Origin: Gammaproteobacteria bacterium
Lineage (GTDB): Bacteria; Pseudomonadota; Gammaproteobacteria; G965277405
Reading direction: 5' to 3'
DNA length: 64,000 bases
Assembly (NCBI GenBank): GCA_965277405.1
Contig: OZ255726.1
Location: forward strand, 896,001 to 960,000
The translations under genes and the position numbers were made by a program. Below, piece after piece: positions 316-59,679 of the stretch (its first letter is position 1; every line of letters begins with the position of its first letter). The notes beneath the pieces are model-generated. The model did not search any database. It was not told the origin of the DNA and worked only from the letters and a program-made list of their open reading frames with translations.

Positions 316-479
316 GGAAGCTCTGATTAACTCGCTAGTGGAGCGAGGTTGCCTGCAATTGCCGCGTATGTTGTGCTATACCTTGCTTGAATACTACAAT
401 ACTGCATTTTTGGGATATTCTTTGTCGGGTTGTAGTGGTTTGCATAAATTGCTTTATAAGCAACTGATTCAGAACTTCT
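316..479. mobile_element. Short MITE derivative with family ends and a different interior
   Basis: CTAG|GGAAGCTCTGATTAACTCGCTAGTGGAGCGAGGTTGCCTGCAATTGC matches one end of the full copies; the far end is degenerate (GATTCAGAACTTCT|TTAG) and its flank overlaps the bamE stop. Confidence 0.65.
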
Positions 480-839
480 TTAGATGGAAAAATCAAGTTC
501 GTCTACTGTTGGCATTGCTTTGATTACTTCATATGATTGTACAATTCCTTGTTGAAAATATACAATTATATGCCCGTTTTTTTCTGTCGTTGCAGAATTA
601 CGCGCATCAAAAGTAAAAACATAGTCCCAACGGTTTGGTGAGAACGTATCAATCAGCAGTGGATTACCCAATACAAACCGTACTTGGTCTTGCGTCATCC
701 CTACTTGTAAACGATCTAGCGCGGTTGTCTCAACAATAATGCCTTGCTGGACGGCCGTACGTTGTATGTATGGGTAGCAGCTAGTTAGAAAAAATCCTAT
801 GAAAACAAACAAGAATGAGTAAATTAGAATGATTCGCAT
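480..839 (-). CDS. bamE: Outer membrane protein assembly lipoprotein BamE (SmpA/OmlA)
   Basis: Lipobox LTSC; QQG...LQVGMTQDQVRFVLGNP..D.F...WDY motif; divergent from fur. Confidence 0.92.
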   Translation of the reverse strand: MRIILIYSFLFVFIGFFLTSCYPYIQRTAVQQGIIVETTALDRLQVGMTQDQVRFVLGNPLLIDTFSPNRWDYVFTFDARNSATTEKNGHIIVYFQQGIVQSYEVIKAMPTVDELDFSI

Positions 840-863
840 AAACAGTAGTGTAGGATAAAGATT

Positions 864-1301
864 ATGAATGTCGATAAAATTTTACGCGCAGCAGCTCTCA
901 AAGTCACTAAAGCAAGAAAAGATATATATGGTTTACTTGCACGTAGTAAATCACCGTTGCGTGCCGATGATATATACCATCAATTTAAAATAGATGGCAA
1001 CCCTACAAGTTTAGCAACAATTTATCGTGTCCTCCTCCAATTAGAACAGGTAGGCCTGTTAAGTAAACATCATTTTGACTCAACTACCGCTTGGTATGAA
1101 CTGGTAAGTATCAAACACCACGATCATCTGCGCTGCCTTGATTGTGGACAATTCGTTGAGTTTTATAACGAAACAATCGAACAAAAGCAAAAAGAAGTAG
1201 CGAGGCAACTTGGTTTTACCATGGTTGACCATACCCTGAATATTCAAGGTCATTGCCAACAAACAAATTGCGATCATAAACAGCAACAAACAGATACGTA
1301 A
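864..1301 (+). CDS. fur: Ferric uptake regulator
   Basis: LKVT..R, SLATIYRVL, HHDHL.C..CG...EF motifs. Confidence 0.93.
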   Translation: MNVDKILRAAALKVTKARKDIYGLLARSKSPLRADDIYHQFKIDGNPTSLATIYRVLLQLEQVGLLSKHHFDSTTAWYELVSIKHHDHLRCLDCGQFVEFYNETIEQKQKEVARQLGFTMVDHTLNIQGHCQQTNCDHKQQQTDT

Positions 1302-1303
1302 CT

Positions 1304-3582: not shown

Positions 3583-3649
3583 ACTTGCCCAATTTCCTCT
3601 AATATTAAAATGGTATTAGATTAAACTGTAAAAGATAAATAATGTCAAA

Positions 3650-3677
3650 TTGACACCGTGGAATTGCTGCCTATTAT
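3650..3677 (+). promoter_or_regulatory. sigma70 promoter of tRNA-Ser
   Basis: TTGACA-16 bp-TATTAT, 9 bp upstream of the tRNA. Confidence 0.7.
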
Positions 3678-3686
3678 GCCAGTATT

Positions 3687-3776
3687 GGAGGGATGGCAGA
3701 GCGGTTGAATGCACTGGTCTTGAAAACCAGCAAGGGTTAACACCCTTCCAGGGTTCGAATCCCTGTCCCTCCGCCA
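3687..3776 (+). tRNA. tRNA-Ser(TGA)
   Basis: GGAGGGA acceptor stem, anticodon arm CTGGT-CTTGAAA-ACCAG, long variable arm, GGTTCGAATCC T-arm, encoded CCA. Confidence 0.97.
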
Positions 3777-4994: not shown

Positions 4995-5417
4995 CTAATT
5001 GACAGTAGTTGTGATTTCAATATTTCCTCGCGTTGCATTTGAATATGGGCAGACTTGGTGCGCGTCTTCCACAAGTTTTTCAGCAATATTTTGTTCCATG
5101 TCGGGCACACTGACCAATAATTCTACAGCAATAGCAAAGCCAACCCCTGTAACGTTTTCACCAATACCTACATGCGCAGTAGCGCTTACATTGTCACTGA
5201 TAGCGAGTTTTTGTTCCTTTGCTACATGTTGCATTGCTCCGATAAAACAAGCAGAATATCCTGCGGCAAAAAGCTGTTCTGGGTTAGTGCCGTTTCCTCC
5301 AGTGCCGCCAAGCTCCTTTGGCACACTCAATGAAACAGCTAATTTGTTATCATCACTGGCTGATGTTCCTTCTCGCCCGCCAGTTGATGTGGCTCGTGCT
5401 GTATATATATTTTGCAT
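4995..5417 (-). CDS. ohr: Organic hydroperoxide resistance protein
   Basis: GGREG, TNPEQLFAAGYSACF, AHQVCPYSNATRGN. Confidence 0.96.
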   Translation of the reverse strand: MQNIYTARATSTGGREGTSASDDNKLAVSLSVPKELGGTGGNGTNPEQLFAAGYSACFIGAMQHVAKEQKLAISDNVSATAHVGIGENVTGVGFAIAVELLVSVPDMEQNIAEKLVEDAHQVCPYSNATRGNIEITTTVN

Positions 5418-5491
5418 GTAATTTCCTTTTCCTTAGGTTGTAACAGATAGTATTCAGTCAATGATATGTTTGACTGAATGATTCGGCTTAG

Positions 5492-5774
5492 TGAAGCTCT
5501 GATTAATTCCATGATGGGCGAGACGGAGAAAAAACGCTGATGATAACTAGACGCAGCACTTGATAATACTGGTGGTATTATCAAGTGCTGCAACGACGTT
5601 AGCGCAGCGTTTTTTCCCGTCCTTCTGTTGAATATACAACGGTTTGATGGTAGCGGTACTTGCTGTGTTGCATCCCTTGGCGTATATGCTATGGCATGCG
5701 CCTGCGGAATGCGCCTTGCAATCATCAGCAATTGCCATCAAACTCGCCCCATCAGCGACTTAATCAGAGCTTCC
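5492..5774 (+). mobile_element. MITE, full copy, TSD TTAG/TTAG
   Basis: TIRs TGAAGCTCTGATTAA...TTAATCAGAGCTTCC; near-identical to copies at 13629, 16729, 36754 and 41192. Confidence 0.92.
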
Positions 5775-11528: not shown

Positions 11529-13628
11529 ATGACTCAAAATTCAATTAATTTTAATACCCAAACTGTCTCTTTTGCATTTGGTGACCAAACAATTTCTCTT
11601 GAAACCGGCAGAATTGCACGTCAAGCAAGCGGGGCCGTGCTGGCAACAATGGGTGGAACTGCAATATTGGCAACAACAGTTGTTTCCAAACGCGAAAGCC
11701 GTTTTGACTTTTTCCCGTTGACGGTGAATTATCAAGAAAAAATCTATTCTGCTGGAAAAATTCCAGGTGGTTTTTTCAAACGCGAAGGACGTCCAAGCGA
11801 AAAAGAAACGTTGACATCACGGTTGATTGACCGCCCAATTCGTCCATTGTTTCCAAGCGGATACATGCAAGAAGTGCAAGTCGTTTGTACAGTGATGTCT
11901 GCGGACAAAAACACCAATCCTGATATATTAGCGATGATTGCCGCCTCTGCGAGTTTGTGTATTTCAGGCGCTCCTTTTCAAGGCCCGATCGGCGCTGCGC
12001 GGGTCGGTGTTGGTGGTGATGGTTCGTATATTCTGAACCCATCATATGATGACATGGGTAAGTCATCGTTGGATATGGTCGTGGCAGGCAGCCAAGATGC
12101 AATTTTAATGGTCGAATCTGAAGCCAGCGAACTTGGCGAAGAACATATGCTTGAGGCAGTGATGTTTGCCCATGAACAAATGCAAACTGCAATAGCCGCA
12201 ATACAGGAATTGGTTGTCAAAGTTGGTAACCCCTCAAGTAAATGGGAAGCGCCAGCAACAGACGCAGCATTGGTTGATGGCGTAACTGCCAAGTTTGCAG
12301 AAAAAATTGCAGCTGCATATACCACCAGCGACAAACAGCAACGTAGCGAGCAACTCGATACAATTCGCCAACAAATTCATAGCGAATTTGACACAGAAGA
12401 CAGCAGCAACGCTGGTGAAATTGACTTGATTATAAAGTCAATTGAAAAGTCATCAGTGCGCCAGCGTTTGATTCGAGGCGAGCCACGGATTGACGGACGA
12501 GATTTAAAAACAGTTCGACCGATTGCCATTGAAATTGGTGTGCTACCGAATACACACGGCAGCGCATTGTTTACCCGTGGTGAAACACAGGCAATTGTTG
12601 TCAGTACGCTCGGTCCTGTAAAAAGCGCACAAATTATTGATGCGCTTGAAGGTGAATACCGTGATGGATTTATGTTGCATTATAATTTTCCGCCATTTTG
12701 CGTTGGTGAAACAGGAATGATGGTTGGACCCAAGCGCCGTGAGATTGGTCATGGACGGTTAGCAAGAAGAGGTATTGCTGCGGTGTTGCCACCACAAGAG
12801 CAATTTCCATATACGATTCGTGTGGTTTCTGAAATTACTGAATCGAATGGTTCAAGTTCTATGGCAAGTATTTGCGGCACCAGTCTTTCATTAATGGATG
12901 CTGGTGTGCCAATTAAAGCCGCAGTTGCTGGGGTGGCGATGGGATTAGTAAAAGAGGCTGAAGGACATGCAATTATTACCGACATCCTCGGTGATGAAGA
13001 TCACTTAGGCGATATGGACTTTAAAGTTGCCGGAACTGAAAAAGGTGTGACTGCGCTGCAAATGGATATTAAAATTAGCGGAATTACTCGAGAAATTATG
13101 GAAGAAGCGTTGACACAGGCGCGTGAAGGACGCTTACATATTCTTGGTGAAATGAACAAAGTCATTACCAAATCACGGGATCAGCTTGCTGCGTCTGCGC
13201 CAACATTGCTGACATTAAAAATCAAGCAAGATAAAATTCGTGATGTTATTGGTAAAGGTGGTGCAGTAATCAGACAAATGATAGAAGATAGCGGTGCGAC
13301 AATTGATATAGCTGATGACGGTATGGTGCAAGTGTATGGAGAAGGTCGTGATTCAGCAGAAGCTGCGATTCAAATGGTCAAAGACATAGTTGCAGAAGCT
13401 GAAGTAGGGCAACAAATTACAGGTACAGTCCGCTCGATTGTTGATTTTGGCGCATTCGTTAACATTCTGCCAAACACTGATGGCTTGCTGCATATTTCTG
13501 AAGTATCAAAACGACGTATCCAAAATGTCAATGAATTCTTAAAAGAAGGACAGAAAATTGAGGTAATTGTCAAAGAAGTTGACCCGCGCGGGCGTATTAA
13601 GCTCAGTTTAGTGAATATTTTTGACTAA
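11529..13628 (+). CDS. pnp: Polyribonucleotide nucleotidyltransferase
   Basis: [45 protein letters not shown] and S1 domains. Confidence 0.98.
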
Positions 13629-13914
13629 GGAACCTCTGATTAATTCCATGATGGGCGAGACGGAGAAAAAACGCTGATGAAACTTAAGCGCAGTGCGCAG
13701 ATAATACTGGTGGTATTATCAAGTGCTGCAACGACGTTAGCGCAGCGTTTTTTTTCCGTCCTTCTATTGAATATATGATGGTTTGCCTACAAGCGGTACT
13801 TGCTGTGTTGCATCCCTTGGCGTATATGCTACGGCATGCGCCTACGGAATGCGCCTTGCAATCATCAGCAATTGCAGGCAAACTCGCTCCATCAGCAAGT
13901 TAATCAGAGGTTCC
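13629..13914 (+). mobile_element. MITE, full copy, inserted at the pnp stop (TSD CTAA/CGAA)
   Basis: GGAACCTCTGATTAA...TTAATCAGAGGTTCC; the left TSD contains the pnp TAA. Confidence 0.92.
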
Positions 13915-14288: not shown

Positions 14289-14334
14289 GGAAACTCTGAT
14301 TAAGTCGCTCCATGATGGGAAAATCAGAGTTTGC
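14289..14334. repeat. 46-bp minimal MITE derivative (two TIRs forming a hairpin)
   Basis: GGAAACTCTGATT-AAGTCGCTCCATGATGGGAA-AATCAGAGTTTGC; the loop joins subterminal sequence from both ends of the element. Confidence 0.7.
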
Positions 14335-16728: not shown

Positions 16729-17013
16729 GGAAGCTCTGATTAACTCGCTGATGGAGCGAGTTTGCCTGCAATTGCTGATGATTGCAAGGCGCATTTCGCA
16801 GGCGTATGCCGTAGCATATACGCCAAGGGATGCAACACAGCAAGTACCGCTTGTAGGCAAACCATCATATATTCAATAGAAGGACGGGAAAAAACGCTGC
16901 GCTAACGTCGTTACAGCACTTGATAATACCACCAGTGTTATCTGCGCACTGCGTCTAGTTATCATCAGCGTTTTTTCTCCGTCTCGCCCATCATGGACTT
17001 AATCAGAGCTTCC
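16729..17013 (-). mobile_element. MITE, full copy, reverse orientation, flanks CTAG/TTTG
   Basis: Reverse complement of the 13629 copy with intact TIRs. Confidence 0.92.
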
Positions 17014-17513: not shown

Positions 17514-19445
17514 ATGAGTAAAAAAGCAATTCCTAATGCTACAAAAGAGCGAGCATTAATCAACCCAGCGCAATATCAACAAATGTATGATGAATCTATT
17601 CAGGATCCTGAAGCATTTTGGCATAAACAAGGTAGGCGCATAGATTGGATAACACCATATACGCAAACCAAAACAACATCATTTGCACAAGATAATGTGT
17701 CGATTGAATGGTACCGCGATGGTGGATTAAACGTTGCAGCGAATTGCCTAGATAGGCATTTAGAGCAACGCGGTGATCAAGTTGCAATTATATGGGAAGG
17801 CGATAACTCCCAAGAAAAACGCACAATAACATACACTGAATTACACCATCTTGTCTGCCAATGTGGCAATGCACTGCAGCGGATGGGGGTCGCTAAAGGT
17901 GACGTTGTAACAATATATATGCCAATGATCCCAGAGGCAGCAATAGCCATGCTTGCATGTGCCAGAATTGGCGCGGTGCATTCTGTCATCTTTGCTGGGT
18001 TTTCTCCAGAAGCGATTGCCGGAAGAGTGGAAAATAGCGCGTCTACACTCATTATCACCGCGGATAGCGGCCCACGAGCTGGTAAGCAAACACCACTCAA
18101 AGCAAATGTTGATACAGCTATAGCAAAACTCGGGTTTGCTGTGCAAACCCTGGTGGTTAAGCGCTCAGGAGAACCCGTTGCTTGGGATGATACGCGTGAT
18201 CATTGGTGGCACGACATGCTGGACTCTGCCGACTGCCCGCCTGTAGAAATGAACGCAGAAGACCCTTTATTTATTTTGTATACTTCTGGATCTACTGGAG
18301 CACCCAAAGGACTAACGCATACATCGGGCGGTTATTTGGTCTACGCATCGATTACATATGAATATATTTTTGACTACCACCCGGGTGACATTTTTTGGTG
18401 CAGCGCCGATGTTGGATGGATAACTGGGCATTCATATATAGTGTATGGACCGCTTGCCAATGGTGCGACGACAGTGATGTTTGAAGGTGTACCGACATAT
18501 CCTGACACCAGTCGTTGGGGGCAAATTATTGAACAATACGGCGTAACAGTTTTTTATACGGCGCCGACAGCCATTCGCGCGTTAATGGCAGATGGAGATA
18601 ATGTATTAGGCAACAGCGATTTATCTTCATTAAAATTATTAGGCACCGTTGGTGAACCAATAAACCCAGAAGCATGGGAATGGTATAGCCGAGTTTTTGG
18701 CAATGGCAAGTTAGCAATTGTAGACACTTGGTGGCAAACAGAAACTGGCGCCGCGCTAATATCACCTCTTCCTGGGGCAATCGAAGCCAAACCTGGGTCG
18801 GCAACGAAGCCGTTTTTTGGCATTCAACCTGCATTAGTCGACGCAGATGGGGTGATTTTGGAGGGTGCTGCGGCTGGAAATTTAGTGCTGCTCGATTCTT
18901 GGCCAGGTCAAGCCCGCAGCATTTGGGGAGACCACCCACGCTTTGTGGCCACATATTTTTCAACATATGCGGGTAAATATTTTACCAGCGATGGCGCGCG
19001 TCGCGACGAAGACGGGTATTATTGGATTACTGGTCGCGTCGACGATGTTATGAATATATCTGGTCATCGGCTTGGCACAGCAGAAGTCGAGAGTGCGCTG
19101 GTGGCGCACCCGCTCGTTGTCGAGGCGGCGGTTGTTGGTTTTCACCACGATATTAAGGGTCAAGCAATTTATGCATACGTTACGCTCAAGCACGGAGTAG
19201 CAGATACGGACGCCCTCAATGCCGAGTTGAAGCAGTGGGTGCGCCAAGAGATTGGTGCTATCGCCACACCAGAGACTATTCAATGGGCACCAGGGCTGCC
19301 CAAAACCCGCTCTGGAAAAATTATGCGCAGGATATTGCGTCAAATTGCTAAAAATGAATATGAGCAACTTGGAGATATCAGCACACTCGCAGATACAAGT
19401 GTTGTCAGCAGCTTAATTGCAGAACATAAATACATCAGCGGCTAA
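17514..19445 (+). CDS. acs: Acetyl-CoA synthetase
   Basis: [35 protein letters not shown]; AAGGAGG RBS. Confidence 0.97.
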
Positions 19446-20330
19446 CAGCAATCTTAGCAATTGCCCTAAGCGTTTGTATAAACCTTGCTGCTTTTCCGTT
19501 TGTCTGCGGCCTGTATGGTTTGGTAAAAACGTGCTTGATTTGACAAGCATCAAGATATCGATTTACGAACTTTGGTCGATATGCAGGACCGTTGCCTGTC
19601 ATCAGCCGTTGCACCGCTATTCCCAAAGATGAAAAATGCTCCAATGATCGGTGCATAAACCCCTGAGTCGTTGCCTTTTTCTCATTAGGAAGCACCGCCA
19701 CAAACGCCCATCGACTATGGTCATCAATACCAACATGGACGCACTCAATACCATGGCCTGTATTTGCTGTTGCAGGAGCACCAAATTTATGCCCAGGTGG
19801 AGTAAAACGTTGCAGTTTCTTGATGTCCAGATGCAGCATGTCGCCAGGGTGCTCATATCAATGCGCTTTTTCTCTTGTTAAGGTCTTTTTTGTAAGGCAC
19901 AGCCGTCTCAAAATTTTGGTGACAGTGGCGTATGCCAATTGCAAATACTTGGCAATGCTCCGTGCATTCATTTGTGACTCTAAATAGAGTTTTTGGATGC
20001 GTTGAGCCAAGATCTCAGCGAGTTTAGCTGGGTTTGAAATTGGCCTGCTGGAAAGATATTGTACAGTGCAGATGTTCCACCTGATGTATAGCGTCTGCGC
20101 CACTTGTAAACAGTTAGTAGCGTAATAGTAGCGAAATGGCAAAATCGTTGGCTACGCGATTCACAGGGTGCTTGTCGACAAGCACCCTGTGAACCATAAC
20201 TTCTCGACTATGAAACGTTGTTTTGGCACAATGATGTGGGTTGTTCATGCTGTACTCCTTTGTTTAGTAACTAATACAGTACCAGCTTGTTAGTTAGCTG
20301 ATGTGTGAACACACCTCCGTAGCATTTACA
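19446..20330 (-). mobile_element. IS481-family element, degenerate (frameshifted transposase, 3' truncated)
   Basis: LHLDIKKL, IDDHSR, TGNG (normally TDNG), KPYRPQTNGKAARFIQT (normally KAERF); ATG at 20248 with AAGGAG; TGT-starting end at 20330. Confidence 0.88.
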
Positions 20331-21295
20331 CTTAATAAGGTATAATGTTTCTTTTCCTGAGATAATTCGATACGAGGAACTGATTTCACCCAAGCTAGAA
20401 TGTTCAGCACCCTGTCGCCTGTAAGCGCAGTACCCCAAAATCAGCCAATTCGCCATATCAAGAAAATGGTCGATGTGGCGTTGTAGGAAGTGAAAAGCTT
20501 CCACATGAAAGACGACGATGACCACAATTATGGCAGCAGCAACAAACGGATTGATGTTAAAGGCAAGAAACGCCACCGCGCTACCCACCAATCTACCACA
20601 GATCCCGAAGCGCGCTTTGGCAAGAAAAGCCAAGCCCAAGCGGCAATACCGTGTTACGTGGGCAATATTATGATTGAGAACCGCAATGGTTTGGTGGTAG
20701 ATGCACATAGCAAACAGTTCAGCGGCACCGCTGCAACCGATGCTGCGATACCGATGCTGCGATAGAAATGCTTGCCAATATTCCAAGAAATCGCCAAGTG
20801 ACATTGGCAGCGGACAAGAAATACGACACCAAAGTCCTTGTCAAGCAATGCCAAGCAATGCCAAGCAATGCCGTGAATTGAGCGTAACGCCCCACGTTGC
20901 GCAAAACACAGCAAAACGAAGTTCATCAATAGATCAACGAACGACGAGACACCCCGGGTATCAAACCAGCCAAAAAGTACGCAAACGCATACAAGAAGTC
21001 TTTGGCTGGGCTAAGACTATTGGCGGACTTCACAAAGGAAAGTATGTGGTAATAGCAAAGTGAACCATCAATTTGTATTCACCATGGCCGCGTATCACTT
21101 GGTACGCATGCGCAATCTTGGTGCTGTATCATGCTGATTTGCAACGACAGCGGACAGCCACGCCCAACAATTGGAAACGTGGTAGTTTCACACGGAATAC
21201 CACCAAAATCCTCCCTAATAACAGCTGCTGTGCGCAAAAAAATCAATTTTGGCAGTCTTGAGGCTTATTTTATATGATAAATTTTTAACAGCCTG
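20331..21295 (+). mobile_element. IS5/IS1182-type element remnant (internally deleted, frameshifted)
   Basis: N-terminal RGTD..QARMFS..SP...VP...PIR..K.MVD.AL at 20370; TH.STTDPEAR, ENRNGLVV, ADKKYD, RKRI.E.FGWAKT fragments; right end TTTTAACAGCCTG|TTAA. Confidence 0.85.
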
Positions 21296-21549
21296 TTAAG
21301 ATCAACCAAACAGACAGATATTTTATTCTTCTGCATCAATAGTGATGCAAACTGAAAGTACCCCAAAGACATATTGGCACCACTTCCATGAAAAAAAACT
21401 AGTGTTTTACCATTGTCGCTATTCGCTGCATAATAGCGAATATGAATATATTCCTTATCGTATTTTGATTGAACAAACAGGGGTTGGCTTGAAACTAGCT
21501 TTATGGCTTCTAATTTGTTAATAAAGTTATAAAATTTAACATATGACAA
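21296..21549 (-). pseudogene. Alpha/beta hydrolase N-terminal fragment truncated by the IS end
   Basis: TLVFFHGSG...VCLVDL, after which the frame runs into the IS terminal repeat. Confidence 0.7.
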
Positions 21550-22176
21550 CTAGTCTTCTGTAGCTATTTTCTTAACTACGTCAAGCATTGACTGTATTCT
21601 TAATTTATTAGAATTATCTGTAGTCCTTAGCAAATCCTCAAGTTTTTCAATAATATAATTAAAATCTGATTTTGCTAATCCTCCTTGCCCAAGGAAATCG
21701 GGAATGTTTTTGTTGATTATCGCCCGTTCGAATCTTGCTGCCAAGTTGTTAGGATTTTGAGAAACAGCTTTAGCCATCATTCTAGTTGCACTCCTTAAAT
21801 ACGAGTAGGCAGTACCTAAATTTTTCTCTTGCCCAGCTCGTAAAACTAGTAATCCACCATTTACGACTTGTATTAATGGATCTTTATACAATTCATGTAA
21901 TTTTTCGATTAACTTCGCCCCTTGTTCAAACTCGAGTATCTGGTTCTCTTTTTGTTGACCGATAAAAATAAATATTAACATTGATAGCTCTTGAGCCTCT
22001 AGCAGCGTGAGCTTATTGATATCTTTTTTATTCAATTAGTGAAATAGGTCATGCCTTTGATCCATTTCTACTGGTATTTTAATTAGTAAAACTAAGTTAT
22101 CATTAGACTGTACCTTTTGTATAGAAATAAAACACGTCAAACAAACGAAAATCAGTAAACTAGTCAATTTTTTCAT
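21550..22176 (-). pseudogene. AT-rich secreted helical (TPR-like) protein with an in-frame TAA at codon 47
   Basis: GGAGAG RBS and signal peptide MKKLTSLLIFVCL at 22176, in frame with ORF 21550..22035 across TAA 22036-22038. Confidence 0.6.
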
Positions 22177-22279
22177 TGTTAATCTCTCCATTGTTAATAC
22201 ATATACAAATGGTTGCTGCGTGTACTATAGAGGCATATAGTATGCCGCATGATACGCCGACACACCTAAAACATATACC

Positions 22280-36753: not shown

Positions 36754-37037
36754 GGAACCTCTGATTAAGTCCATGATGGGCGAGACGGAGAAAAAACGCT
36801 GATGATAACTAGACGCAGTGCGCAGATAATACTGGTGGTATTATTAAGTGCTGCAACGACGTTAGCGCAGCGTTTTTTCCCGTCCTTCTGTTGAATATAC
36901 AACAGTTTGATGGTAGCGGTACTTGCTGTGTTGCATCCTTTGGCGTATATGCTACGGCATACGCCTGCGGAATGCGCCTTGCAATCATCAGCAATTACCA
37001 TCAAACTCGCTCCATCAGCGACTTAATCAGAGGTCCC
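36754..37037 (+). mobile_element. MITE, full copy, TSD CTAA/CTAA, between the plsC stop and the hemA start
   Basis: GGAACCTCTGATTAA...TTAATCAGAGGTCCC; the right TSD holds the plsC TAG (minus strand). Confidence 0.92.
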
Positions 37038-37761: not shown

Positions 37762-37966
37762 AGAATCTCTGATGTAATTGCTAGTGAAACACTGTATGTG
37801 TCGCCAATTAGTTGCGGTAACATCGCCGCTACAACAGCAGGGCAAGATTTACTGTGAACGGCTGGTGTGCATGGGCTTGCCAAGGCAGCACCATTTACAG
37901 CAAACCGCCGTGCTTTTCAACCTGTAAAGTTGCCTCACACCCATCATGGGCTTAATCAGCGCTTCT
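37762..37966. mobile_element. Degenerate MITE-family element with an unrelated interior
   Basis: TTAG|AGAATCTCTGATG...CCCATCATGGGCTTAATCAGCGCTTCT; fills the plsC-yaaA spacer. Confidence 0.55.
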
Positions 37967-41191: not shown

Positions 41192-41474
41192 GGAAGCTAT
41201 GATTAAGTCCATGACGGGCGAGACGGAGAAAAAACGCTGATGATAACTAGACGCAGTGCGCAGATAATACTGGTGGTATTATCAAGTGCTGCAACGACGT
41301 TAGCGCAGCGTTTTTTTCCGTCCTTCTGTTGAATATATGATGGTTTGCTGCAGCGGTACTTGCTGTGTTGCATCCCTTGGCGTATATGCTACGGCATGCG
41401 CCTGCGGAATGCGCCTTGCAATCATCAGCAATTGCAGGCAAACTCGCTCCATCAGCGACTTAATCAGAGCTTCC
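41192..41474 (+). mobile_element. MITE, full copy, TSD CTAT/CTAT, inserted at the start codon of the ligase gene
   Basis: AGGAGGAATA-CTAT|GGAAGCTATGATTAA...CAGAGCTTCC|CTAT-GGGC. Confidence 0.93.
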
Positions 41475-41476
41475 CT

Positions 41477-42742
41477 ATGGGCCTTACATTAGGGTTGGTC
41501 TGTCAGCGCAATAACAACGTGCCGTTCCTATTTGAAGCAGCGGCAGCCAATCGATGTGGTTTAGTACTTATTCACGCACCCGGTGAATCTCCCCCGACGC
41601 ATATGCCAGCTGTTGTCCACACGTTGGAGCTCGACGTATTTGCTCATCCACAAGCCGCGCTCTCACAGCTTGAGGCTGAAAAAATCGGACTAGATGGCAT
41701 ATTAACCTGCCGTGAAGAGGCTGTGCCCTGGACTGCCTTAGCAGCCCAACGCCTCAAACTACCTGGACTCAACCCCGATGCGGCACTCATCACCCGCGAT
41801 AAAGCACAGATGAGAAAAGCTTTTGCAGTGGCGGGGTTAAATGTTCCAAGCTATACCTCCCTGTCAGCAGACGCCCCAGTAACACTATCCGCTAGCATGT
41901 CATACCCGCTAGTCGTCAAACCCACAGGTGGCTACGCAAGCCAAGGTGTCATTCGCGTTGATAAAGCGAGTGATCTGAAAAATACAGTAGCTAAAGTGCG
42001 AGCAATCAATGCCAATGACCTCGACGCTTTCGCCACCACTACCAGCGGAATCAATTGGGGCGCTGTTATCGTTGAAGAGTATATCGACGGCCCCGAATAT
42101 GCAGTAGAGGTGTTTGCAACCGAAGGGCGGGTACATGTACTCTCCATTGGTTACAAAGGCGAGCCCAAGGGTCCTTACTTTGAGGAGACAGTTTACCTCG
42201 CGCCACCACACCTCGCGCCAGCTACACATAAGGCAATTGTGGAGCAAGCAATTGGCGGCATGGAATCTTTAGGCCTTACTGACGGCCCAGGCCACTGCGA
42301 GTTAAGACTGCAAAATAGCACGAAACCCTATCTGCTTGAGATTGGAGCAAGGATCGGCGGGTCTGGGGTAAGCCAATTTATAGTACAGGAAAGTTCAGGA
42401 ATTGATTATGCTGGCCTACAGTTCCGCCAGTCCGCCAAGTCCTCCCTTCCCGAACTTCCTGACATAGCGACGCCAATCGCGACTGCAGGAAACTGGATTA
42501 TCCCACTCGGTGGTCATGGAAAATTGGTTGATATTGCAGGTCTACAAGTGGTTCATGAGCATCCAGAAACCAAGCGCGTGCTAACCTTCCTCGAACCTGG
42601 CACCGCTGTGCAACCCTATCCAATTTTCAGTGGGTATCCAGGTTTCGTGTTATCACGCCACACCGACTGGCAGTCTGGTATAGACTATCATCGCTGGCTC
42701 AGCCAAAAACTCCGTACACATTGGGTGGAGGTAGAAACTTAA
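41477..42742 (+). CDS. ATP-grasp L-amino acid ligase (BL00235/TabS type)
   Basis: YPLVVKP..G..SQGV.RVD, VHVLSIGYKG..KGP.FEE, GARIGGSGVS, AGN.IIP, PYP.FSGYPGF, recalled from the B. licheniformis Lal; true start MGLTLG. Confidence 0.87.
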   Translation: MGLTLGLVCQRNNNVPFLFEAAAANRCGLVLIHAPGESPPTHMPAVVHTLELDVFAHPQAALSQLEAEKIGLDGILTCREEAVPWTALAAQRLKLPGLNPDAALITRDKAQMRKAFAVAGLNVPSYTSLSADAPVTLSASMSYPLVVKPTGGYASQGVIRVDKASDLKNTVAKVRAINANDLDAFATTTSGINWGAVIVEEYIDGPEYAVEVFATEGRVHVLSIGYKGEPKGPYFEETVYLAPPHLAPATHKAIVEQAIGGMESLGLTDGPGHCELRLQNSTKPYLLEIGARIGGSGVSQFIVQESSGIDYAGLQFRQSAKSSLPELPDIATPIATAGNWIIPLGGHGKLVDIAGLQVVHEHPETKRVLTFLEPGTAVQPYPIFSGYPGFVLSRHTDWQSGIDYHRWLSQKLRTHWVEVET

Positions 42743-43111: not shown

Positions 43112-43995
43112 TTAATGAACCTCTGATTTAAAATGTTTACATGAATATCGCTGTGCTTGGACAGCTGTCATTGCGCTGGTCGCTATAATATCGTCAATAC
43201 TGCAACCACGCGAGAGCTCATTCACTGGTTTGTTTGACCCTTGTAAAAAGGTCCAATCGCAGTCCCTCCGCCCATTCGCCCATTCGCCCATTAGTTGCGC
43301 AATTGTATCGCCACTATTCGCAACCTCTAGCGCTGGAAATATTAAAACATTGGCGCTGCATTGGCTGATTATTAACCAACCACAACCAATCACCATCAAC
43401 AACCGCGTGCTATTGTGCCACGCTGGTATGAATATGCAGTATATTTTTGCTTGTAAACTGTCGCAGCCATGAGTTTTGTGATCCCCAGCAATGGCACATA
43501 TGCATGCGTCGCCGGGTAATTGCATGCTGCATGCAACAGATATTGTTCTTGTGTATCAATATAATCTTCTATAAACGGCGGATACCACAGCGGTAGTGGG
43601 TCGTAGCACGTAGTAAGCTGTTCAAGGTATGCGCTGCACCAATGCTGCCGTACATTTGTTTGCTTCCTTTTTACAGCACTTTGATAAACGCTTCTTGTAT
43701 TGTCATTTGTATCATATACCGCTCCTGCTAAATAATTTCTCAGTAACGACCTATGGTCAATCAAGATAATGCGAGATTGAATAGCAACCGCGCAGCAACT
43801 GTACTGAATTTTGCACCATGCAGACACATCCAACAATAATTGCTGCGTAACTATCACGCTTGTCCAAACTCCCCCCAGCTACGAAAGCACCACCGCCCCA
43901 TTAAAAAATCTATGCTGCATACCAACTATCAACGCCTAAACTATAAATTCTAAATAGTTATGTCTCGCTTCACAATTGGTGCGGGCAAATACAAT
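43112..43995 (-). pseudogene. pta: Phosphate acetyltransferase pseudogene
   Basis: Frameshifted fragments LAGAVYDT, ANVLIFPALE and FLQGSNKPVNELSRGCSIDDII...A.TAVQA match Pta VSGAVHTT, IFPDL and LQG..KPVNDLSRG...DDI. Confidence 0.75.
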
Positions 43996-44009: not shown

Positions 44010-44153
44010 GGAACCTCTGATTAAGTCCATAATGGGCGAAACGGAGCAAAAACGACGTGAGCACAGCGTTTTTCCTGTTCCTCTGTTGCATATACTGTTC
44101 AATATACAACGGTTTGGAGCAATTGCTGCATCAGCGCCTTAATTAGGACTTCC
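44010..44153 (+). mobile_element. Internally deleted MITE copy (flanks CTAG/TTAA)
   Basis: GGAACCTCTGATTAAGTCCATAATGGGCG...CATCAGCGCCTTAATTAGGACTTCC. Confidence 0.8.
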
Positions 44154-46129: not shown

Positions 46130-46421
46130 GGGATCTCTGATGAACTAGCTGACGGAATGAGTTTGCCTGCAATTGCTGATGATTACAAGGCGTAGAGCGC
46201 ATGACCTAGCTATACGCCAAGGGATGCAATACAGCAAGCGTAAGCAATTGCCGCAAACCAAAAGTGTATTCAACACAACGACGGAGAAAAAACGCTGTGC
46301 TACCGTCGTTGCAGCACTTGGCAATACCCACAGGACCCACCAATATTATCTGCGCACTGCGCTTAAGTTTCATCAAGCGTTTTTCTCCGTCTCGTCCAGC
46401 ATGGACTGAATCAGAGCTTCC
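46130..46421 (-). mobile_element. MITE, diverged full copy, reverse orientation (flanks CTAG/TTTA)
   Basis: Colinear with the 16729 copy; ends in AATCAGAGCTTCC. Confidence 0.88.
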
Positions 46422-48838: not shown

Positions 48839-49891
48839 ATTAGCCAGGTTAAAATTGAAAATTTCACAAAGAAATTTGGTCATTTTACCGCCGTTGATAA
48901 CGTCTCTCTTGATGTTGCTGATGGTAGTTTAGTCTGCTTGCTTGGTCCTTCTGGTTGCGGCAAGACGACTTTGCTGCGCTTGATTGCTGGTTTAGAAGAC
49001 CTGACAGCAGGAAAATTAACGGTTGGCGGCGAAGATTATGGCGAGGTTCCAGCGCATAAACGTAATTTTGGGATGGTATTTCAATCTCTAGCTCTTTTCC
49101 CGCATCTGACAGTCGGCGAAAATATTGCATATCCGCTTAAGATCAGGGGAGCTTCTGCCACCAAGCAGCGAACTCGTGCAACCGAATTGCTCGAATTGGT
49201 AAAACTGGCAGGTCTGGAAGATCGCAAAATTTATCAACTATCTGGTGGTCAGCGGCAACGCGTGGCAATCGCACGTGGTCTAGCAATTGACCCCAACGTA
49301 TTTTTGTTAGATGAACCGCTTTCGGCACTTGATGCCAATTTACGGGAACATATGCAGATTGAACTCAGACAATTGCAACAAGATTTGGGCGTAACAACAA
49401 TTGTAGTGACCCATGACCAGCGTGAGGCCATGTCGATGGCTGATATAGTTATTGTTATGGAAGCAGGAAAAGTACAACAAGTTGGATCGCCCATCGACAT
49501 TTATCGTAACCCAGAAAACACCTTTGTCGCCAATTTTATCGGCGTCAACAATTTACTAACAGGACAGATGCTCGACGCAACAACCTTTGATTTTGACGGC
49601 AATCATATCGACCTTACGGACGATGATAGCGTACATTACGAAATTGGCAGGCCAGCCATATTATCATTTCGGCCTGAGGATGTCGTTGTATCTACTAAAA
49701 AAGGTAGCGCACAACTTAACGGTGAAGTTCTTTTTATTCGCGATCTGGGGGCAAGCGTAGAGATTTTGACCCGTGTTGGCGATATTGAGATCACTGCGGT
49801 TTGTGCGCCCAAACATCGACCAGATGTGAATATTGGTGATGTCGTCTGGCTTGAGATCCACACTGGTCGCACAACGGTACTGGCATCATAA
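48839..49891 (+). CDS. ABC transporter ATP-binding protein (PotA-like), apparent ATT start
   Basis: GPSGCGKT, LSGGQRQR, LLDEP; family-typical sequence (SQVKIENFTKKFGHFTAVD) extends upstream to ATT 48839. Confidence 0.9.
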   Translation: MSQVKIENFTKKFGHFTAVDNVSLDVADGSLVCLLGPSGCGKTTLLRLIAGLEDLTAGKLTVGGEDYGEVPAHKRNFGMVFQSLALFPHLTVGENIAYPLKIRGASATKQRTRATELLELVKLAGLEDRKIYQLSGGQRQRVAIARGLAIDPNVFLLDEPLSALDANLREHMQIELRQLQQDLGVTTIVVTHDQREAMSMADIVIVMEAGKVQQVGSPIDIYRNPENTFVANFIGVNNLLTGQMLDATTFDFDGNHIDLTDDDSVHYEIGRPAILSFRPEDVVVSTKKGSAQLNGEVLFIRDLGASVEILTRVGDIEITAVCAPKHRPDVNIGDVVWLEIHTGRTTVLAS

Positions 49892-50733: not shown

Positions 50734-50736
50734 CTC

Positions 50737-52596: not shown

Positions 52597-52713
52597 GGAT
52601 ATCATGATGCCGAAAAAATAAAACATCTATGTAAATTGTGATATAATGTAAACTAAGTGTGTTGGATGTACTGGATGCATAGATGCATCCAAACGAACAA
52701 CAAGGAGAAAAAT

Positions 52714-54297
52714 ATGACCAAAATGCTTAAGCAATCTCTGATTACGTCGATAATTAGCAAGACGGGGCAACAAGATGATAATAATAGCCGCAGTACGCAG
52801 ACAATACTGCTGGGTATTATCGAGTACTTTAACGACCTTCGCGCAGCGCTGTTTGCCGCCGATGTGTTGAAGATACTGTTGGTTTACGGTACATGTTGTG
52901 TTACTCGCTTGGCGGATATGCTCAGGTCTGCGGTTTGCGCCTTGCAATCATCAGCAATTGCCATCAAGCTCGCCAATCAGCGCCTTAATCAGAGCTTCCT
53001 TAGAATACTAGCTATTTCTGCCACAGTATTTGTCACATTGCCGGTTTTGGCAAAGGACACTCCTGTTACTTGGTGGTATGAACGCGCCACCCCTGAGCAA
53101 CAAGCTGCACTGTCGGAACTGATGATTGATAAATTCAATGCTGCTGACAATGGCAACACTCTCACAATCGACTACCGTGGCAACGAATTGGATAAGCAGC
53201 TGCGGATTGCACTTTTATCAGGAACTGGTCCGGATGTAGTCAATACACCTGGTCCGTCTTTCGTGGCAACAATGGCACGCGCTGGGCAATTGCTGGCACT
53301 CGATGATATCGCTGTTAAAAAAGGCTGGAACGACCGAATCCTGCCATTCTTCATGGATTTGGGTCGGTTCGATGGCCATCTGTATGCGCTGCCAAAAACC
53401 TATGAAACACTTGGATTGTTCTACAACAAAAAGGTCATGGCAGAGAATGGCTGGGCGGTACCTACAACTCTTGCAGAACTGACGACAGTTGCCGATGCAA
53501 TGCTGTCTAAAAACATTATCCCATTTGGGTCTGGCAACTCGGACTGGCGTCCAGCCAACGAATTTCAGGTATCAATTGCTCTCAACTCCATCGCTGGTCC
53601 AGACAACATGCAAAAAGCGCTAACAGGTGAGTTGCCGTGGACGGCAGAACCTTTTGCCAAAGCCATCAATACACTAGATAGCTGGTGGAAAAAAGGCTAT
53701 TTTGGACCTGACTACTTCTCACTCACCGGTGATCAGGTCATGGCTAACCTGGCTAATGGTTCTGCTGCGATGGTGCCAACCGGCACATGGAACTTCCAAC
53801 TAGTCCCAGAATATTTTGGCGATCAACTTGACAACATTGGTTTTGTAGGTTTTCCCAGCGGCGAAGGAGTGGCATACCCAATATACGCACTTGGCATTGG
53901 CTCCACACTCTCTATCGCGGCAAAAGCCAACAACCCTGAAGGTGCTGCCAACGTCATTGATTTTATCTTTAGTAAAGGTTTCTATCAGGACATGAACAGT
54001 GTTTGGCAAGGTGAGTGGAACATGCCGCTGCGTGACCTCAGCAACGTAAAACTGAGCGAAGATATCATCCCGCTGTATACGGAATCTATGGCTGCCTTGG
54101 CTGAATCCGTGAATCAAAGTCAATACGGTTACACTACTTGGACGTTCTTCCCTCCTGCAAGCAACTCTTACATTGTGAGTGGCATCGAGCAAGTTTGGCT
54201 GGATGATATTACTACCGAAGAATTCCTCGCAGAACTTGATGATATTTTCAAGCAGGAATTGGCTGAAGGCAAAGTCGCGGATATCCCTGCGCGTTAA
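52714..54297 (+). CDS. Sugar ABC substrate-binding protein with an in-frame 91-codon MITE insert in its signal peptide
   Basis: AAGGAG-ATG 52714; GPDV, DG.LYALP, LFYNK motifs; removing the insert restores MTKML(K/R)ILAISATVFVTLPVLA. Confidence 0.88.
   Translation: MTKMLKQSLITSIISKTGQQDDNNSRSTQTILLGIIEYFNDLRAALFAADVLKILLVYGTCCVTRLADMLRSAVCALQSSAIAIKLANQRLNQSFLRILAISATVFVTLPVLAKDTPVTWWYERATPEQQAALSELMIDKFNAADNGNTLTIDYRGNELDKQLRIALLSGTGPDVVNTPGPSFVATMARAGQLLALDDIAVKKGWNDRILPFFMDLGRFDGHLYALPKTYETLGLFYNKKVMAENGWAVPTTLAELTTVADAMLSKNIIPFGSGNSDWRPANEFQVSIALNSIAGPDNMQKALTGELPWTAEPFAKAINTLDSWWKKGYFGPDYFSLTGDQVMANLANGSAAMVPTGTWNFQLVPEYFGDQLDNIGFVGFPSGEGVAYPIYALGIGSTLSIAAKANNPEGAANVIDFIFSKGFYQDMNSVWQGEWNMPLRDLSNVKLSEDIIPLYTESMAALAESVNQSQYGYTTWTFFPPASNSYIVSGIEQVWLDDITTEEFLAELDDIFKQELAEGKVADIPAR
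52731..52999 (+). mobile_element. MITE, strongly diverged copy inside a CDS (TSD TTAA/TTAG)
   Basis: GCAATCTCTGATTA...GCGCCTTGCAATCATCAGCAATTGCCATCAAGCTCGCC...TTAATCAGAGCTTCC. Confidence 0.88.
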
Positions 54298-56067: not shown

Positions 56068-56084
56068 AGTTTTAAGAGCTTACA

Positions 56085-58202
56085 ATGATTATGAAATTGC
56101 AAGACGACTATCTTGAACGAGTTTATGCGGGGGTGCTAGGCAAGCTTATCGGGGTCTATCTCGGGCGTCCGTTTGAGGGCTGGAGCTATGAGCGCATCAT
56201 GAAAGAGCTCGGAACGATTAAATACTACGTTCATGAACAACTCGGTGACCCGTTGGTCATTACCGATGATGATATCTCGGGTACATTTACGTTTTTGCGG
56301 GCGCTGGAGGATTATGATCTCTCTGAAAACCTCAAATCAGCAGATATCGGTAAGGCTTGGATGAATTATATTGTTGAAAAACGGTCTATCCTCTGGTGGG
56401 GTGGCAATGGCAATTCAACCGAGCACACCGCTTGGCTGAACCTGCGTAAAGGCATCCTGGCGCCACAAAGTGGTTGTATTGCAACCAACGGTCTGACCGT
56501 GGCTGAACAAATCGGCGCGCAGATTTTTATCGATGGTTGGGCTTTGGTTGCGCCAGGGCAACCAGCATTGGCGGCCAAGTTTGCCAAAGAAGCTGGCAGC
56601 GTGAGTCACGGTGGGGAATCCGTCTTCGCCGCTATGCTGTGGGCTGCGATGGAGAGTGAAGCCTTCCACTCTAAAGATATTGATCACTTGTTGGATACAG
56701 GCCTTTCTTTCATTCCAACCAACAGCGAACTTGCCACGATGATCAGAGATGTTCGCAAATGGAACAGCAAAATCGTCGACTGGCGAGATTGTCGTCAGAA
56801 GATTGCCGATAACTACGGTTACGACAAATACCTTGGTAATTGTCATATTATCCCAAATCATGCGATCATGGTGATGACGATGCTGTATGCGAGAGGGGAT
56901 TTTTCTTTCGCCCAACAGATTATAAACACCTCTGGCTGGGACACAGATTGCAACGCAGGTAACGTTGGCTGCCTCCACGGGATTATGTTGGGTCTCGATG
57001 GTTTGAGTAAGGGTCAAGATTGGCGAGGACCAATTGCTGACCGCATGCTGATCTCGTCTGCTGATGGTGGAAACTCCATTAACGACGCAGTCAAGATGGC
57101 TTACTACATTGCCAACCTCGGCAAGACCCTTGCTGGCGAGACACTGATTGAGTCGCCAAAAGGCGGTGCCCAATATCATTTCTCGCTTCCAGGCGCACAG
57201 CAGGGGTTTCAACTAACCGAACAAACTGGTGGTGATTTTGCTGCGCGCGTACAGGGAACATCGCATCACGGAACTGGGATGCTGGAAATTCGCTTCAATG
57301 GATTATCACTGGGAGGTGAAGTAGTGACAACCACACCAACCTTTGCTCCATTGGATGTTTTGCGGATGAGAACATATGATCTGATGGCAACACCGTTGAT
57401 CTATTCTGGTCAAACTCTTGTCGCTCGTGTCATTTCAGACGAAAACACAAGCGGCAAAATTGTCGTCAAATTGCGCATCCGCCATTACGGCGCAGCGGAC
57501 CAATTGGTTAATGTTGATAGCGACCCAATACACATTATCGCTGGGAACACGGGCGAAGTCAGGTGGCAGCTTCCAGAGTGTGGGTCTCAACCAATCGCAG
57601 CAATTGGTCTTGTTGTATCTAGTGCAGATGGTCGGGTGACGGGTCGAGTATATCTTGACTGGATGGGGTGGACAGGCCCCCCTGAACTCACTCTACGCCG
57701 CCCAAGTGAGCCAAGCGATTTCTGGCATCGTGCGTGGGTGAACGGCGTAGATATTTTCTCCAAACATTTCCCTGAAAGTTTTCACATTTCACAAGATCGT
57801 GGCGCAGGTTTGATCATTCATGGCACACGCCAGTGGACTGACTACAAAGTAACAGCGGATGTCGTCGTACATTTGGGGCGATACGCTGGATTGACCGCAC
57901 GTACACAAGGTTTGCGTAGATTTTACGCAGCACGGATATCCGCAAAAGGACTATTTGAAATAACCCGTAGTTACGATGACGAAATCGAAGTTCTTGCGTC
58001 AGCAGCTTTTGAGTTTAGATTGGATAACTGGGTTTCCATGTTCATGATAGTTCTGGGAACGACAGTCACCGCAGGTGCAGACAAAATAACCCTTACTGTG
58101 GATGACACATCAAATAAAGTTTTGAAGGATGGTGGTATCGGTCTGATGGTGGCTGAAGGAGCAGCGTCAGCAAATATTTTCTATGTAACATCAGAAACTT
58201 AA
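56085..58202 (+). CDS. ADP-ribosylglycohydrolase-family protein with a long C-terminal extension
   Basis: ERVYAG.LGK.IGV.LG.PFEGW, TDDD, E.IGAQI..D, GWDTDCNAG. Confidence 0.88.
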   Translation: MIMKLQDDYLERVYAGVLGKLIGVYLGRPFEGWSYERIMKELGTIKYYVHEQLGDPLVITDDDISGTFTFLRALEDYDLSENLKSADIGKAWMNYIVEKRSILWWGGNGNSTEHTAWLNLRKGILAPQSGCIATNGLTVAEQIGAQIFIDGWALVAPGQPALAAKFAKEAGSVSHGGESVFAAMLWAAMESEAFHSKDIDHLLDTGLSFIPTNSELATMIRDVRKWNSKIVDWRDCRQKIADNYGYDKYLGNCHIIPNHAIMVMTMLYARGDFSFAQQIINTSGWDTDCNAGNVGCLHGIMLGLDGLSKGQDWRGPIADRMLISSADGGNSINDAVKMAYYIANLGKTLAGETLIESPKGGAQYHFSLPGAQQGFQLTEQTGGDFAARVQGTSHHGTGMLEIRFNGLSLGGEVVTTTPTFAPLDVLRMRTYDLMATPLIYSGQTLVARVISDENTSGKIVVKLRIRHYGAADQLVNVDSDPIHIIAGNTGEVRWQLPECGSQPIAAIGLVVSSADGRVTGRVYLDWMGWTGPPELTLRRPSEPSDFWHRAWVNGVDIFSKHFPESFHISQDRGAGLIIHGTRQWTDYKVTADVVVHLGRYAGLTARTQGLRRFYAARISAKGLFEITRSYDDEIEVLASAAFEFRLDNWVSMFMIVLGTTVTAGADKITLTVDDTSNKVLKDGGIGLMVAEGAASANIFYVTSET

Positions 58203-58251
58203 CGCATGACGCGAAAATCATGCATAGAGAATTATTACAAGACGGAGAAAA

Positions 58252-59316
58252 ATGGCAAGCGTTGAAATTAAAAACGTCTTCAAGTATTTTGATGATACAC
58301 AAGTTTTGGAAGACATCTCGGTCAAAATTGAGGATGGAGAATTTCTGGTTCTCGTTGGCCCTTCCGGATGTGGAAAATCGACATTGTTGCGCATGGTTGC
58401 AGGTTTGGAAGACATTACTAGCGGTGAGATTTTGATAAACGCTACGTTGGTAAACAAGCTCCCCCCCAAAGCACGTGATGTGGCTATGGTTTTTCAGAAT
58501 TACGCGTTATATCCGCATTTAACTGTAGCCGAAAATATGGGGTTTTCTTTGATGCTGGCGGGGGCACCAAAATTAGAAAAAGTAAAACGTGTCAACGACG
58601 TCGCAACAATGTTGGGTCTTGCAGATCTGTTGGATCGCAAACCAAAAAATCTGTCAGGCGGGCAAAGACAGCGGGTCGCGATGGGGCGAGCGATCGTTCG
58701 AAAACCGCAGCTGTTTCTGTTTGATGAGCCATTGAGTAACCTCGACGCGAAATTGCGGGTTGCTATGCGCAGCGAGATCAAATCTCTGCACCAAAAAATG
58801 AAGAGCACAGCAATCTACGTGACACATGATCAAGTCGAAGCGATGACGATGGCTGACCGGATTGTTGTAATGAACGAAGGGCGTATTGAGCAAATTGGAC
58901 GCCCTTTGGAACTATACGATAACCCAGTCAACGTTTTCGTTGCTGGTTTTATTGGAACTCCATCGATGAATTTCCTCGCCGCTCGTGTGGATTTGACTGG
59001 CTCAATGCCCAAAGCGACTCTTCCTACAGGGGATGAACTACCGCTGCCAGAATTGAACGGTCTTAGACAAAGCGAAAACATTATCTATGGAATGCGTCCG
59101 GAACATTGTAGCATTGCTGATGCAGGCACAGCTGTTGTAGTCGATGTCATTGAACCTATGGGTGCTGAAACGCAACTCATTCTGAAATTAGGCTATGCGT
59201 CAATCGTAGTTACTATTCGCGATCGTGTTTCCTTACACCATGGAGAAAAAATTAAAATTTTGCCAGATGTGTCGAAAGTAGTGATTTTTAAAGTGGATAC
59301 TGGAACTCGAGTTTAG
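58252..59316 (+). CDS. Carbohydrate ABC ATP-binding protein (MalK/UgpC-like)
   Basis: GPSGCGKST, VFQNYALYPH, LSGGQRQR, DEPLSNLDAKLR, FIG.P.MN. Confidence 0.94.
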   Translation: MASVEIKNVFKYFDDTQVLEDISVKIEDGEFLVLVGPSGCGKSTLLRMVAGLEDITSGEILINATLVNKLPPKARDVAMVFQNYALYPHLTVAENMGFSLMLAGAPKLEKVKRVNDVATMLGLADLLDRKPKNLSGGQRQRVAMGRAIVRKPQLFLFDEPLSNLDAKLRVAMRSEIKSLHQKMKSTAIYVTHDQVEAMTMADRIVVMNEGRIEQIGRPLELYDNPVNVFVAGFIGTPSMNFLAARVDLTGSMPKATLPTGDELPLPELNGLRQSENIIYGMRPEHCSIADAGTAVVVDVIEPMGAETQLILKLGYASIVVTIRDRVSLHHGEKIKILPDVSKVVIFKVDTGTRV

Positions 59317-59679
59317 CAGTGGCTTGGACCTAGTTGACTGAATGACAAATGAGGTAGCGGGTGAATTCAGACAATAATTCGATTTTTACTGCAACATTCG
59401 CAAGCTAATCGACCTCACCCGTTTAACCCCGCCGCCGTCGCTCTTACACAGCGTGTAAGGAACAATACAGCAACTATCGCAATTACGGCAAACCATCATA
59501 TATTCAACAGATGAACGGAAAAACCGCTGCGCTGCGTCATTGCAGCACTTGGTAATACCCACAAGACCCACAAGACCCACAAGACCCCCAAGACCCACCA
59601 GTGCTATCTGCGCACTTCGCTTAAGTTTCATCAGTGTTTTTGCTCGGTCTCGCCCATCATCGACTTCATCAGAGCTTCC
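59317..59679 (-). mobile_element. MITE, diverged reverse copy with a 9-bp tandem expansion (probable TSD TTAG/TTAG)
   Basis: Clear homology over about 59455-59679; the left end is inferred from GACCTAGTTGACTGAATGA resembling the 46130 copy; the left TTAG contains the ATPase stop. Confidence 0.75.

Follow-up and report, generated by a model that had tools for sequence, protein, structure and literature searches.

A dispersed repeat with IS5-like ends, probably a nonautonomous IS5-group element, in a gammaproteobacterial genome

What is the sequence of about 285 bp that recurs through 64,000 nucleotides of a Gammaproteobacteria bacterium genome (assembly GCA_965277405.1, contig OZ255726.1, forward-strand positions 896,001 to 960,000; this whole stretch is called the window here, and positions are counted from its first nucleotide)? 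[quoted passage not shown] Four generic features of a MITE were found, namely, small size (about 50-800 bp) without a transposase gene, terminal inverted repeats, target-site duplication, and multiple dispersed copies whose flanks are unrelated. On the evidence as a whole, the best explanation is that the family is a nonautonomous IS5-group MITE, an assignment that we consider highly probable and that rests on the similarity of its ends to those of IS5, on 4-bp direct duplication, and on a YTAR target.

The repeat family and its ends

Family loci were recovered by BLASTN with the copy at 13629-13914 as the query and by nhmmer with a profile built from seven copies. The searches yielded 12 loci in the 64-kb window, in keeping with the earlier count of about 12, and every locus named in the sequence-only reading was among them. 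A 15-nucleotide end motif matched the window 17 times at ≤2 mismatches compared to 0.16 matches expected, and 17 matches were reached in 0 of 100 shuffles. Together, the loci make up 4.1% of the window (2,650 bp), and each of the 12 is intergenic. Their coding capacity is nil, as the open reading frames (ORFs) that overlap them belong to no Pfam family. By size, there are seven full-length copies (269-292 bp), one copy of 363 bp, one of 144 bp, one of 46 bp, and two solo ends, and copies lie in both orientations, as had been stated. The loci are as follows, with flanking 4-mers given left/right.

316..364, minus strand: 49-bp solo right-hand end with CTAG before it (nhmmer E=1.3e-9, model positions 237-285)
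5492..5774, plus strand: full-length copy of 283 bp with the exact duplication TTAG/TTAG, between an ohr-like gene on one side and tolB on the other
13629..13914, plus strand: full-length copy of 286 bp, flanks CTAA/CGAA, the left flank including the pnp stop codon (13626-13628)
14289..14334, strand unassigned: mini-element of 46 bp made of two degenerate ends, flanks GCAT/GTAT, between fis-like and glutathione reductase genes
16729..17013, minus strand: full-length copy of 285 bp, flanks CAAA/CTAG, downstream of tRNA-Gln
36754..37037, plus strand: full-length copy of 284 bp with the exact duplication CTAA/CTAA, the right flank including the stop codon (37038-37040) of a minus-strand acyltransferase gene
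37901..37966, minus strand: relic of a left-hand end that resembles the window family over 31 bp and, over about 66 bp and at 71-73%, the family in metagenome-assembled genomes (MAGs) described below
41192..41474, plus strand: full-length copy of 283 bp with the exact duplication CTAT/CTAT
44010..44153, plus strand: internal-deletion derivative of 144 bp that keeps both ends, flanks CTAG/TTAA
46130..46421, minus strand: older full-length copy of 292 bp that shares 72-77% identity with the young copies, flanks TAAA/CTAG
52731..52999, plus strand: the oldest of the full-length copies, with a length of 269 bp and 62-74% identity to the rest, flanks TTAA/TTAG
59317..59679, minus strand: copy of 363 bp with homology at 59458-59679, an unrecognizable far end, and the exact duplication CTAA/CTAA (TTAG on the plus strand)

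Two boundaries drawn earlier fared differently. A start at 37762 found no support, as family resemblance is confined to the last 31-66 bp of that locus (37901-37966). Recognizable homology likewise stops at 59458 in the last copy listed, yet the exact 4-bp duplication backs the proposed boundary at 59317, where the flank contains the stop codon (59314-59316) of the upstream ABC ATPase gene. In the same copy, a 9-bp unit (ACCCACAAG) recurs 4.7 times over 59557-59598, within the apical loop of the first of two internal hairpins. One additional 9-bp unit of similar sequence occurs in the copy at 46130-46421, at the hairpin-loop position matching the array. The loop of the first hairpin thus seems especially prone to minisatellite growth, as is that of the BrickBuilt MITE of Porphyromonas gingivalis.

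The ends of the family form an imperfect terminal inverted repeat of about 31 bp, supported by 29 paired columns in an alignment of 13 copies (92.3% of cells paired); an inverted repeat had been predicted correctly but assigned a length of only 15 bp. Exact 4-bp direct duplications flank 4 of the 10 two-ended window copies. The three reported earlier (TTAG, CTAA, and CTAT) are indeed exact, and a fourth, CTAA at 59317-59679, had been overlooked. Three further flank pairs (CTAA/CGAA, TTAA/TTAG, and GCAT/GTAT) agree at 3 of 4 positions. Moreover, 14 of the 22 flanking 4-mers in the window conform to YTAR, whereas only 1.1% of all window positions do, such that the predicted YTAR-type target with true 4-bp direct repeats is borne out. 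IS5 itself makes a 4-bp duplication and prefers YTAR targets.

The terminal 25-mers of the seven full copies (14 ends), anchored at the tip, were compared with the ends of IS5A as annotated in Escherichia coli K-12. Identity to the transposase-side end of IS5 averaged 16.2 and reached 18 of 25 positions, and identity to the other IS5 end averaged 12.4 of 25. Control ends (10 ends from IS1, IS2, IS3, IS30, and IS186) gave at most 10 of 25 identities, or 12 when offsets of ≤3 bases were allowed, and the binomial probability of 18 or more identities in 25 is about 1e-6. The MITE ends are of the GGAAG type and resemble IS5-group inverted repeats. Similarity of up to 18 of 25 positions to E. coli IS5, 4-bp direct repeats, and YTAR-enriched flanks are each consistent with the IS5-type nonautonomous MITE proposed from the sequence. 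We conclude that the family most probably belongs to the IS5 group.

Relatives in other genomes, origin, and age

A scan of representative genomes with a 26-nucleotide end pattern returned at least 12 matching loci from at least 5 MAGs, which are labelled Chromatiales, Sedimenticolaceae, or Gammaproteobacteria and are all distinct from the genome of the window. At least 8 of the related loci lie in one Chromatiales MAG. Three contigs of that MAG (L006, L007, and L008) end 55-92 bp into a related MITE copy; evidently, the repeat breaks the assembly, and the copy number is therefore under-counted there. Element sizes among the matches listed are 275, 274, 265, 161, and 68 bp, and the MAG and window elements can be aligned over their full length, with the ends and the right part conserved and the left-centre sequence almost wholly different. 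Deletion derivatives of the kind typical of MITEs occur in both sets (144 and 46 bp in the window; 161 and 68 bp in the MAGs). Among the seven MAG copies for which both flanks are available, two have exact duplications (CTAG and TTAA) and three have flanks that agree at 3 of 4 positions. Ends shared by at least 5 gammaproteobacterial MAGs point to an unrecognized IS5-group lineage that is common to, or exchanged among, them.

Databases and literature supplied no name for the family. At Rfam 15 gathering scores, no copy matched any described family, and the best relaxed match was mir-3660 (E=0.09; 20.9 bits compared to a cutoff of 70). A search of plasmid records with a 50-nucleotide end (BLASTN, E up to 10) gave 9 records at chance level (E=3, unrelated genes). 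The end strings were not found in the literature, nor was any MITE linked with Endozoicomonadaceae or Endozoicomonas, and none linked with Sedimenticolaceae, Thiodiazotropha, or Chromatiales was among the matches listed. A wider literature search on symbionts, IS5, and MITEs gave nothing relevant.

The statement that no matching transposase lies in the window held in every scan: no IS5-type transposase was found among 54 ORFs compared with NCBIfam and 16 compared with Pfam, and tblastn with the E. coli IS5 transposase gave a best E value of 4.8 in the window and values of 1.0-4.8 across the window and the 12 related loci. Single-end matches in three MAG loci (L001, L004, and L009) were considered as places where a partner IS might lie, but the ORFs beside them encode GGDEF/EAL, SPOR-domain, CBS-domain, and other proteins and no transposases. 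Of the matches themselves, that in L001 is a mini-element of 68 bp, that in L004 is a solo end, and that in L009 is a copy of 265 bp. As neither the window nor the 12 loci yielded a partner transposase, mobilization in trans is something that we infer. By analogy with IS5-family elements, both MITE ends would be bound by a DDE transposase whose gene lies elsewhere; this enzyme would excise the element, which would then enter a YTAR target at a staggered cut of 4 bp, with repair producing the 4-bp direct duplication.

The target may also account for where copies are found. A YTAR site includes TAA or TAG, and insertions within genes would be selected against. As YTAR can hold a stop codon, such selection would lead to intergenic accumulation, with some copies lying on a neighbor's stop codon; on insertion there, the duplication would restore the stop. 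Consistent with this expectation, the stop codon of a neighboring gene lies inside the 4-bp flank at 3 of the 12 loci (pnp, the acyltransferase gene, and the ABC ATPase gene; coordinates above), and a stop codon lies 2-4 nucleotides away at two more.

The element itself was probably formed by inverted duplication of one end of a parent IS, to judge from its sequence, because each half shows weak homology to the other when inverted and because both ends of the element resemble a single IS5 end, that on the transposase side. The left half and the reverse complement of the right half are about 60% identical, and in 4 of 6 copies their score lies 3.4-4.9 standard deviations over a null in which the ends were kept and the interior was shuffled. 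As for age, five copies (5492, 13629, 16729, 36754, and 41192) had been described as near-identical, which overstates their similarity: their pairwise identity is 88.5-95.1%, and they form two sub-lineages. The copy at 46130 is 72-77% identical to these young copies, and the copy at 52731 shares 62-74% identity with the remaining full copies. These identities fit repeated or prolonged activity with at least three age classes, in line with the earlier suggestion of several waves. There is no sign of very recent movement, as no two copies are identical.

A conserved fold and the competing explanations

As a single strand, the copy at 13629 is predicted to fold with -130 and -120.6 kcal/mol on its two strands (z about -9.9). 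The fold has the shape of a Y, in which a closing stem formed by the inverted repeats carries two hairpins of about 100 nucleotides each, and most of the other copies take the same shape when folded with DNA parameters. Covariation was assessed on 13 aligned full copies, of which 7 are from the window and 6 from MAGs representing 4 other genomes. The consensus fold contains 70 pairs, and 92.4% of cells are paired compared to 33-43% after sliding the partners by 1-3 columns; both sides have changed in 35 of the 70 pairs compared to 7-16 with slid partners, although the copies fall into few clades, so that cells overstate the number of events. In shuffles, the observed values were not reached on 4 of 5 measures. 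The main signal comes from the first internal hairpin, in which 24 of 32 pairs are compensatory, and the second hairpin is weak in the consensus fold (11 pairs, -4.8 kcal/mol). At the base of the first hairpin in the window family, a run of A's pairs with a run of T's, so that whichever way the element is read, T's follow a stem. Within the window genome, one change involves a whole block, such that GTTTGCCT...AGGCAAAC in the copies at 13629 and 16729 corresponds to GTTTGATGG...CCATCAAAC in those at 5492 and 36754. In quasi-palindromes, hairpin-templated repair can yield blocks of apparently compensatory change without selection. That the Y fold, and chiefly its internal hairpin of about 100 nucleotides, is under selection across distant gammaproteobacteria because it is functional for the element or the host is a proposal that we consider unlikely; the hairpin's sequence is nearly all exchanged from one lineage to another, yet its pairing persists. 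If it were true, the fold might serve the element as a structure recognized by the transposase or a host factor, or by protecting read-through transcripts; it might serve the host as a portable bidirectional terminator placed exactly at stop codons; and the family would be a structured MITE under functional constraint, not inert junk.

Several observations count against an IS5-group MITE and have to be set beside the evidence for one. The exact duplication is missing at 6 of the 10 two-ended window copies, and two of the flank pairs agree at just 1-2 of 4 positions. The window and the 12 related loci yielded neither an IS5-type transposase, the cognate enzyme that would be expected between matching ends, nor any longer element bounded by such ends, and no match to a full copy was found among PLSDB plasmids and phage records (BLASTN, word 11). 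The homology between halves is weak in the remaining 2 of 6 copies (2.5 standard deviations for L003 and 0.6 for L009). One rival reading is a MITE of another DDE family, either an element of IS630/Tc1 type that duplicates TA and has one more base in its inverted repeat or a member of some other family that duplicates 4 bp. TA lies within most flanks, the exact MAG duplications CTAG and TTAA are palindromic and hence compatible with both models, and no partner transposase turned up in the window or the related loci. However, the outer flank bases (first and fourth) recur as direct repeats in the four exact cases that are not palindromic (TTAG, CTAA, CTAT, and CTAA). The TA model would make these an unrelated flank base and a base of the inverted repeat, for which no match is predicted; the TA duplication expected of an IS630/Tc1-type MITE is thus not what the flanks display. 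The ends are also far closer to IS5 than to the five other IS families compared (IS1, IS2, IS3, IS30, and IS186). We therefore regard an origin in another DDE family as very unlikely.

The fold invites a different explanation, that the repeat is mainly a structured nucleic acid selected by the host, such as a bidirectional terminator, an RNA stabilizer, or a small-RNA gene, and was merely spread as a MITE. The folds are very stable on both strands, and pairing has been kept through change on both sides of half of the consensus pairs and through compensation in most pairs of the internal hairpin (35 of 70 and 24 of 32, respectively). The A-run/T-run base of that hairpin would suit a terminator, and one copy begins directly after the pnp stop codon. 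Against these points, the T-run is missing from the MAG family, a scan of the copy at 13629 gave 0 terminators and 2 promoters compared to 1.3 expected, no Rfam family matched even when the threshold was relaxed, and copies stand in both orientations relative to neighboring genes. The covariation itself loses weight because few clades were sampled and many cells reflect few events, because repair of quasi-palindromes could mimic compensation and just such a block separates 5492 and 36754 from 13629 and 16729, and because the second hairpin is poorly supported. Taken together, the evidence makes a chiefly host-selected structure improbable. We conclude that a nonautonomous IS5-group MITE is the explanation to be preferred.

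Setting of the window and comparison with known elements

The window is otherwise composed of ordinary gammaproteobacterial housekeeping genes, including fur, lpxC, sbcB, tolB, rbfA, truB, pnp, gor, ispE, acs, priA, purH, prfA, hemA, hda, and rnr, together with polyamine and sugar ABC transporters, two tRNAs, and the signal recognition particle RNA. Its PNPase, encoded on a contig of 2,174,577 bp and present in identical form in three assemblies, is just 65% identical to its best other relatives, which bear names such as Pseudomonadales, Endozoicomonas, and Teredinibacter; the host thus seems to be a gammaproteobacterium that branches deeply and has a rather small genome.

Sequences of another mobile element were also observed. 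A fragment of 134 amino acids of an IS481-family transposase lies at 19435-19839 on the minus strand (model positions 131-241 of 284), and the roughly 2.4 kb beyond it (19840-22250) contain ORFs without a family (20271-20804, 20701-21063, 21550-22035, and 22225-22578); 19435-22250 may be a decayed mobile or foreign region. Elsewhere, a phosphate acetyltransferase gene (pta) is reduced to its C-terminal ~65 residues at 43112-43525 (minus strand), and the N-terminal half of an asparaginase (177 amino acids compared to models of ~340) lies at 22280-22813 (plus strand). The pta and asparaginase fragments suggest some gene decay in the genome.

Some gene calls deserve comment. Four long ORF calls start or run inside MITE copies, at 41345-42742, 52657-54297, 5339-5731, and 52627-52947. 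Two of them are real genes with family matches that begin at residues 63 and 156-176, which puts the true start of each downstream of the copy; the other two have no family and look spurious. The ORF of a polyamine-type ABC ATPase at 48938-49891 (plus strand) aligns from model position 33-35, such that the first ~34 residues are missing from the called ORF, and a gap of 165 nucleotides lies upstream of it; the truncated N terminus may reflect a frameshift or a wrong start. At 56085-58202 (plus strand), inside the operon of a sugar (chitobiose-type) ABC transporter, a gene encodes a 705-amino-acid protein with an N-terminal ADP-ribosylglycohydrolase domain (residues 16-308) followed by ~400 residues without a family. 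Finally, a 564-amino-acid protein with 6 Sel1 repeats is encoded at 29384-31078 (minus strand). Sel1-repeat proteins are common in host-associated bacteria.

The family is an unnamed IS5-group MITE that is real and abundant and of an ordinary kind, a good specimen rather than a surprise. What makes it a good specimen is how densely it occurs, that it extends to several gammaproteobacterial lineages, and that its evolution has preserved its structure; both that mode of evolution and a stop-codon-compatible target have precedents. In the accessible text of a MITE census of 183,232 genomes, just 1.6% of conserved MITEs resemble described ones (PMC11602168), and for that reason a MITE without a name is the usual case. 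If the density in the window held genome-wide, there would be several hundred copies, which would approach the census maximum of 468 MITEs in one genome as given in the same text (PMC11602168). At 4.1% of the sequence, the MITE makes up a large share of the intergenic DNA in an apparently small genome (the contig is ~2.17 Mb). Masking the family prevents mis-annotation, and the repeat explains contig breaks in related MAGs.

Among known short repeats, Correia, ERIC, RUP, and RPE elements resemble the window family in being short, multicopy, mostly intergenic, and able to form long hairpin folds, and they are set apart by the sizes and duplications generally given for them: TA is the duplication made by Correia and RUP elements, and ERIC elements measure about 127 bp. 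E. coli IS5 shares terminal sequence with the MITE, most closely at its transposase-side end, and the 4-bp duplication and YTAR preference known for IS5 were observed for the MITE. IS5, however, is 1,195 bp and encodes a transposase of 326 amino acids, whereas the MITE is ~285 bp and has no gene; outside the ends, no similarity was noticed by inspection, without a formal whole-length alignment. MITEs of the IS5 family are already known, with BrickBuilt and MITE293/700 in P. gingivalis and ATR in Neisseria described in the accessible text of one source (PMC4596501). Like the window family, these elements are nonautonomous, are placed in the IS5 family by their ends, and lack a transposase remnant (PMC4596501), and BrickBuilt also contains an internal tandem array, as does the copy at 59317-59679 (PMC4596501). 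Their ends, however, are of the GAGACC... type rather than the GGAAG type (PMC4596501), and the duplication length of BrickBuilt varies (PMC4596501), whereas that of the window family is consistently 4 bp. The bcr1 repeat of the Bacillus cereus group differs in its size of ~155 bp, its 5-bp direct repeats, and its occurrence in Firmicutes, and a relation to IS5 is not stated in the accessible text (PMC3184786). It nonetheless parallels the window family as a small dispersed repeat with short direct repeats and a fold kept by compensatory changes (PMC3184786).

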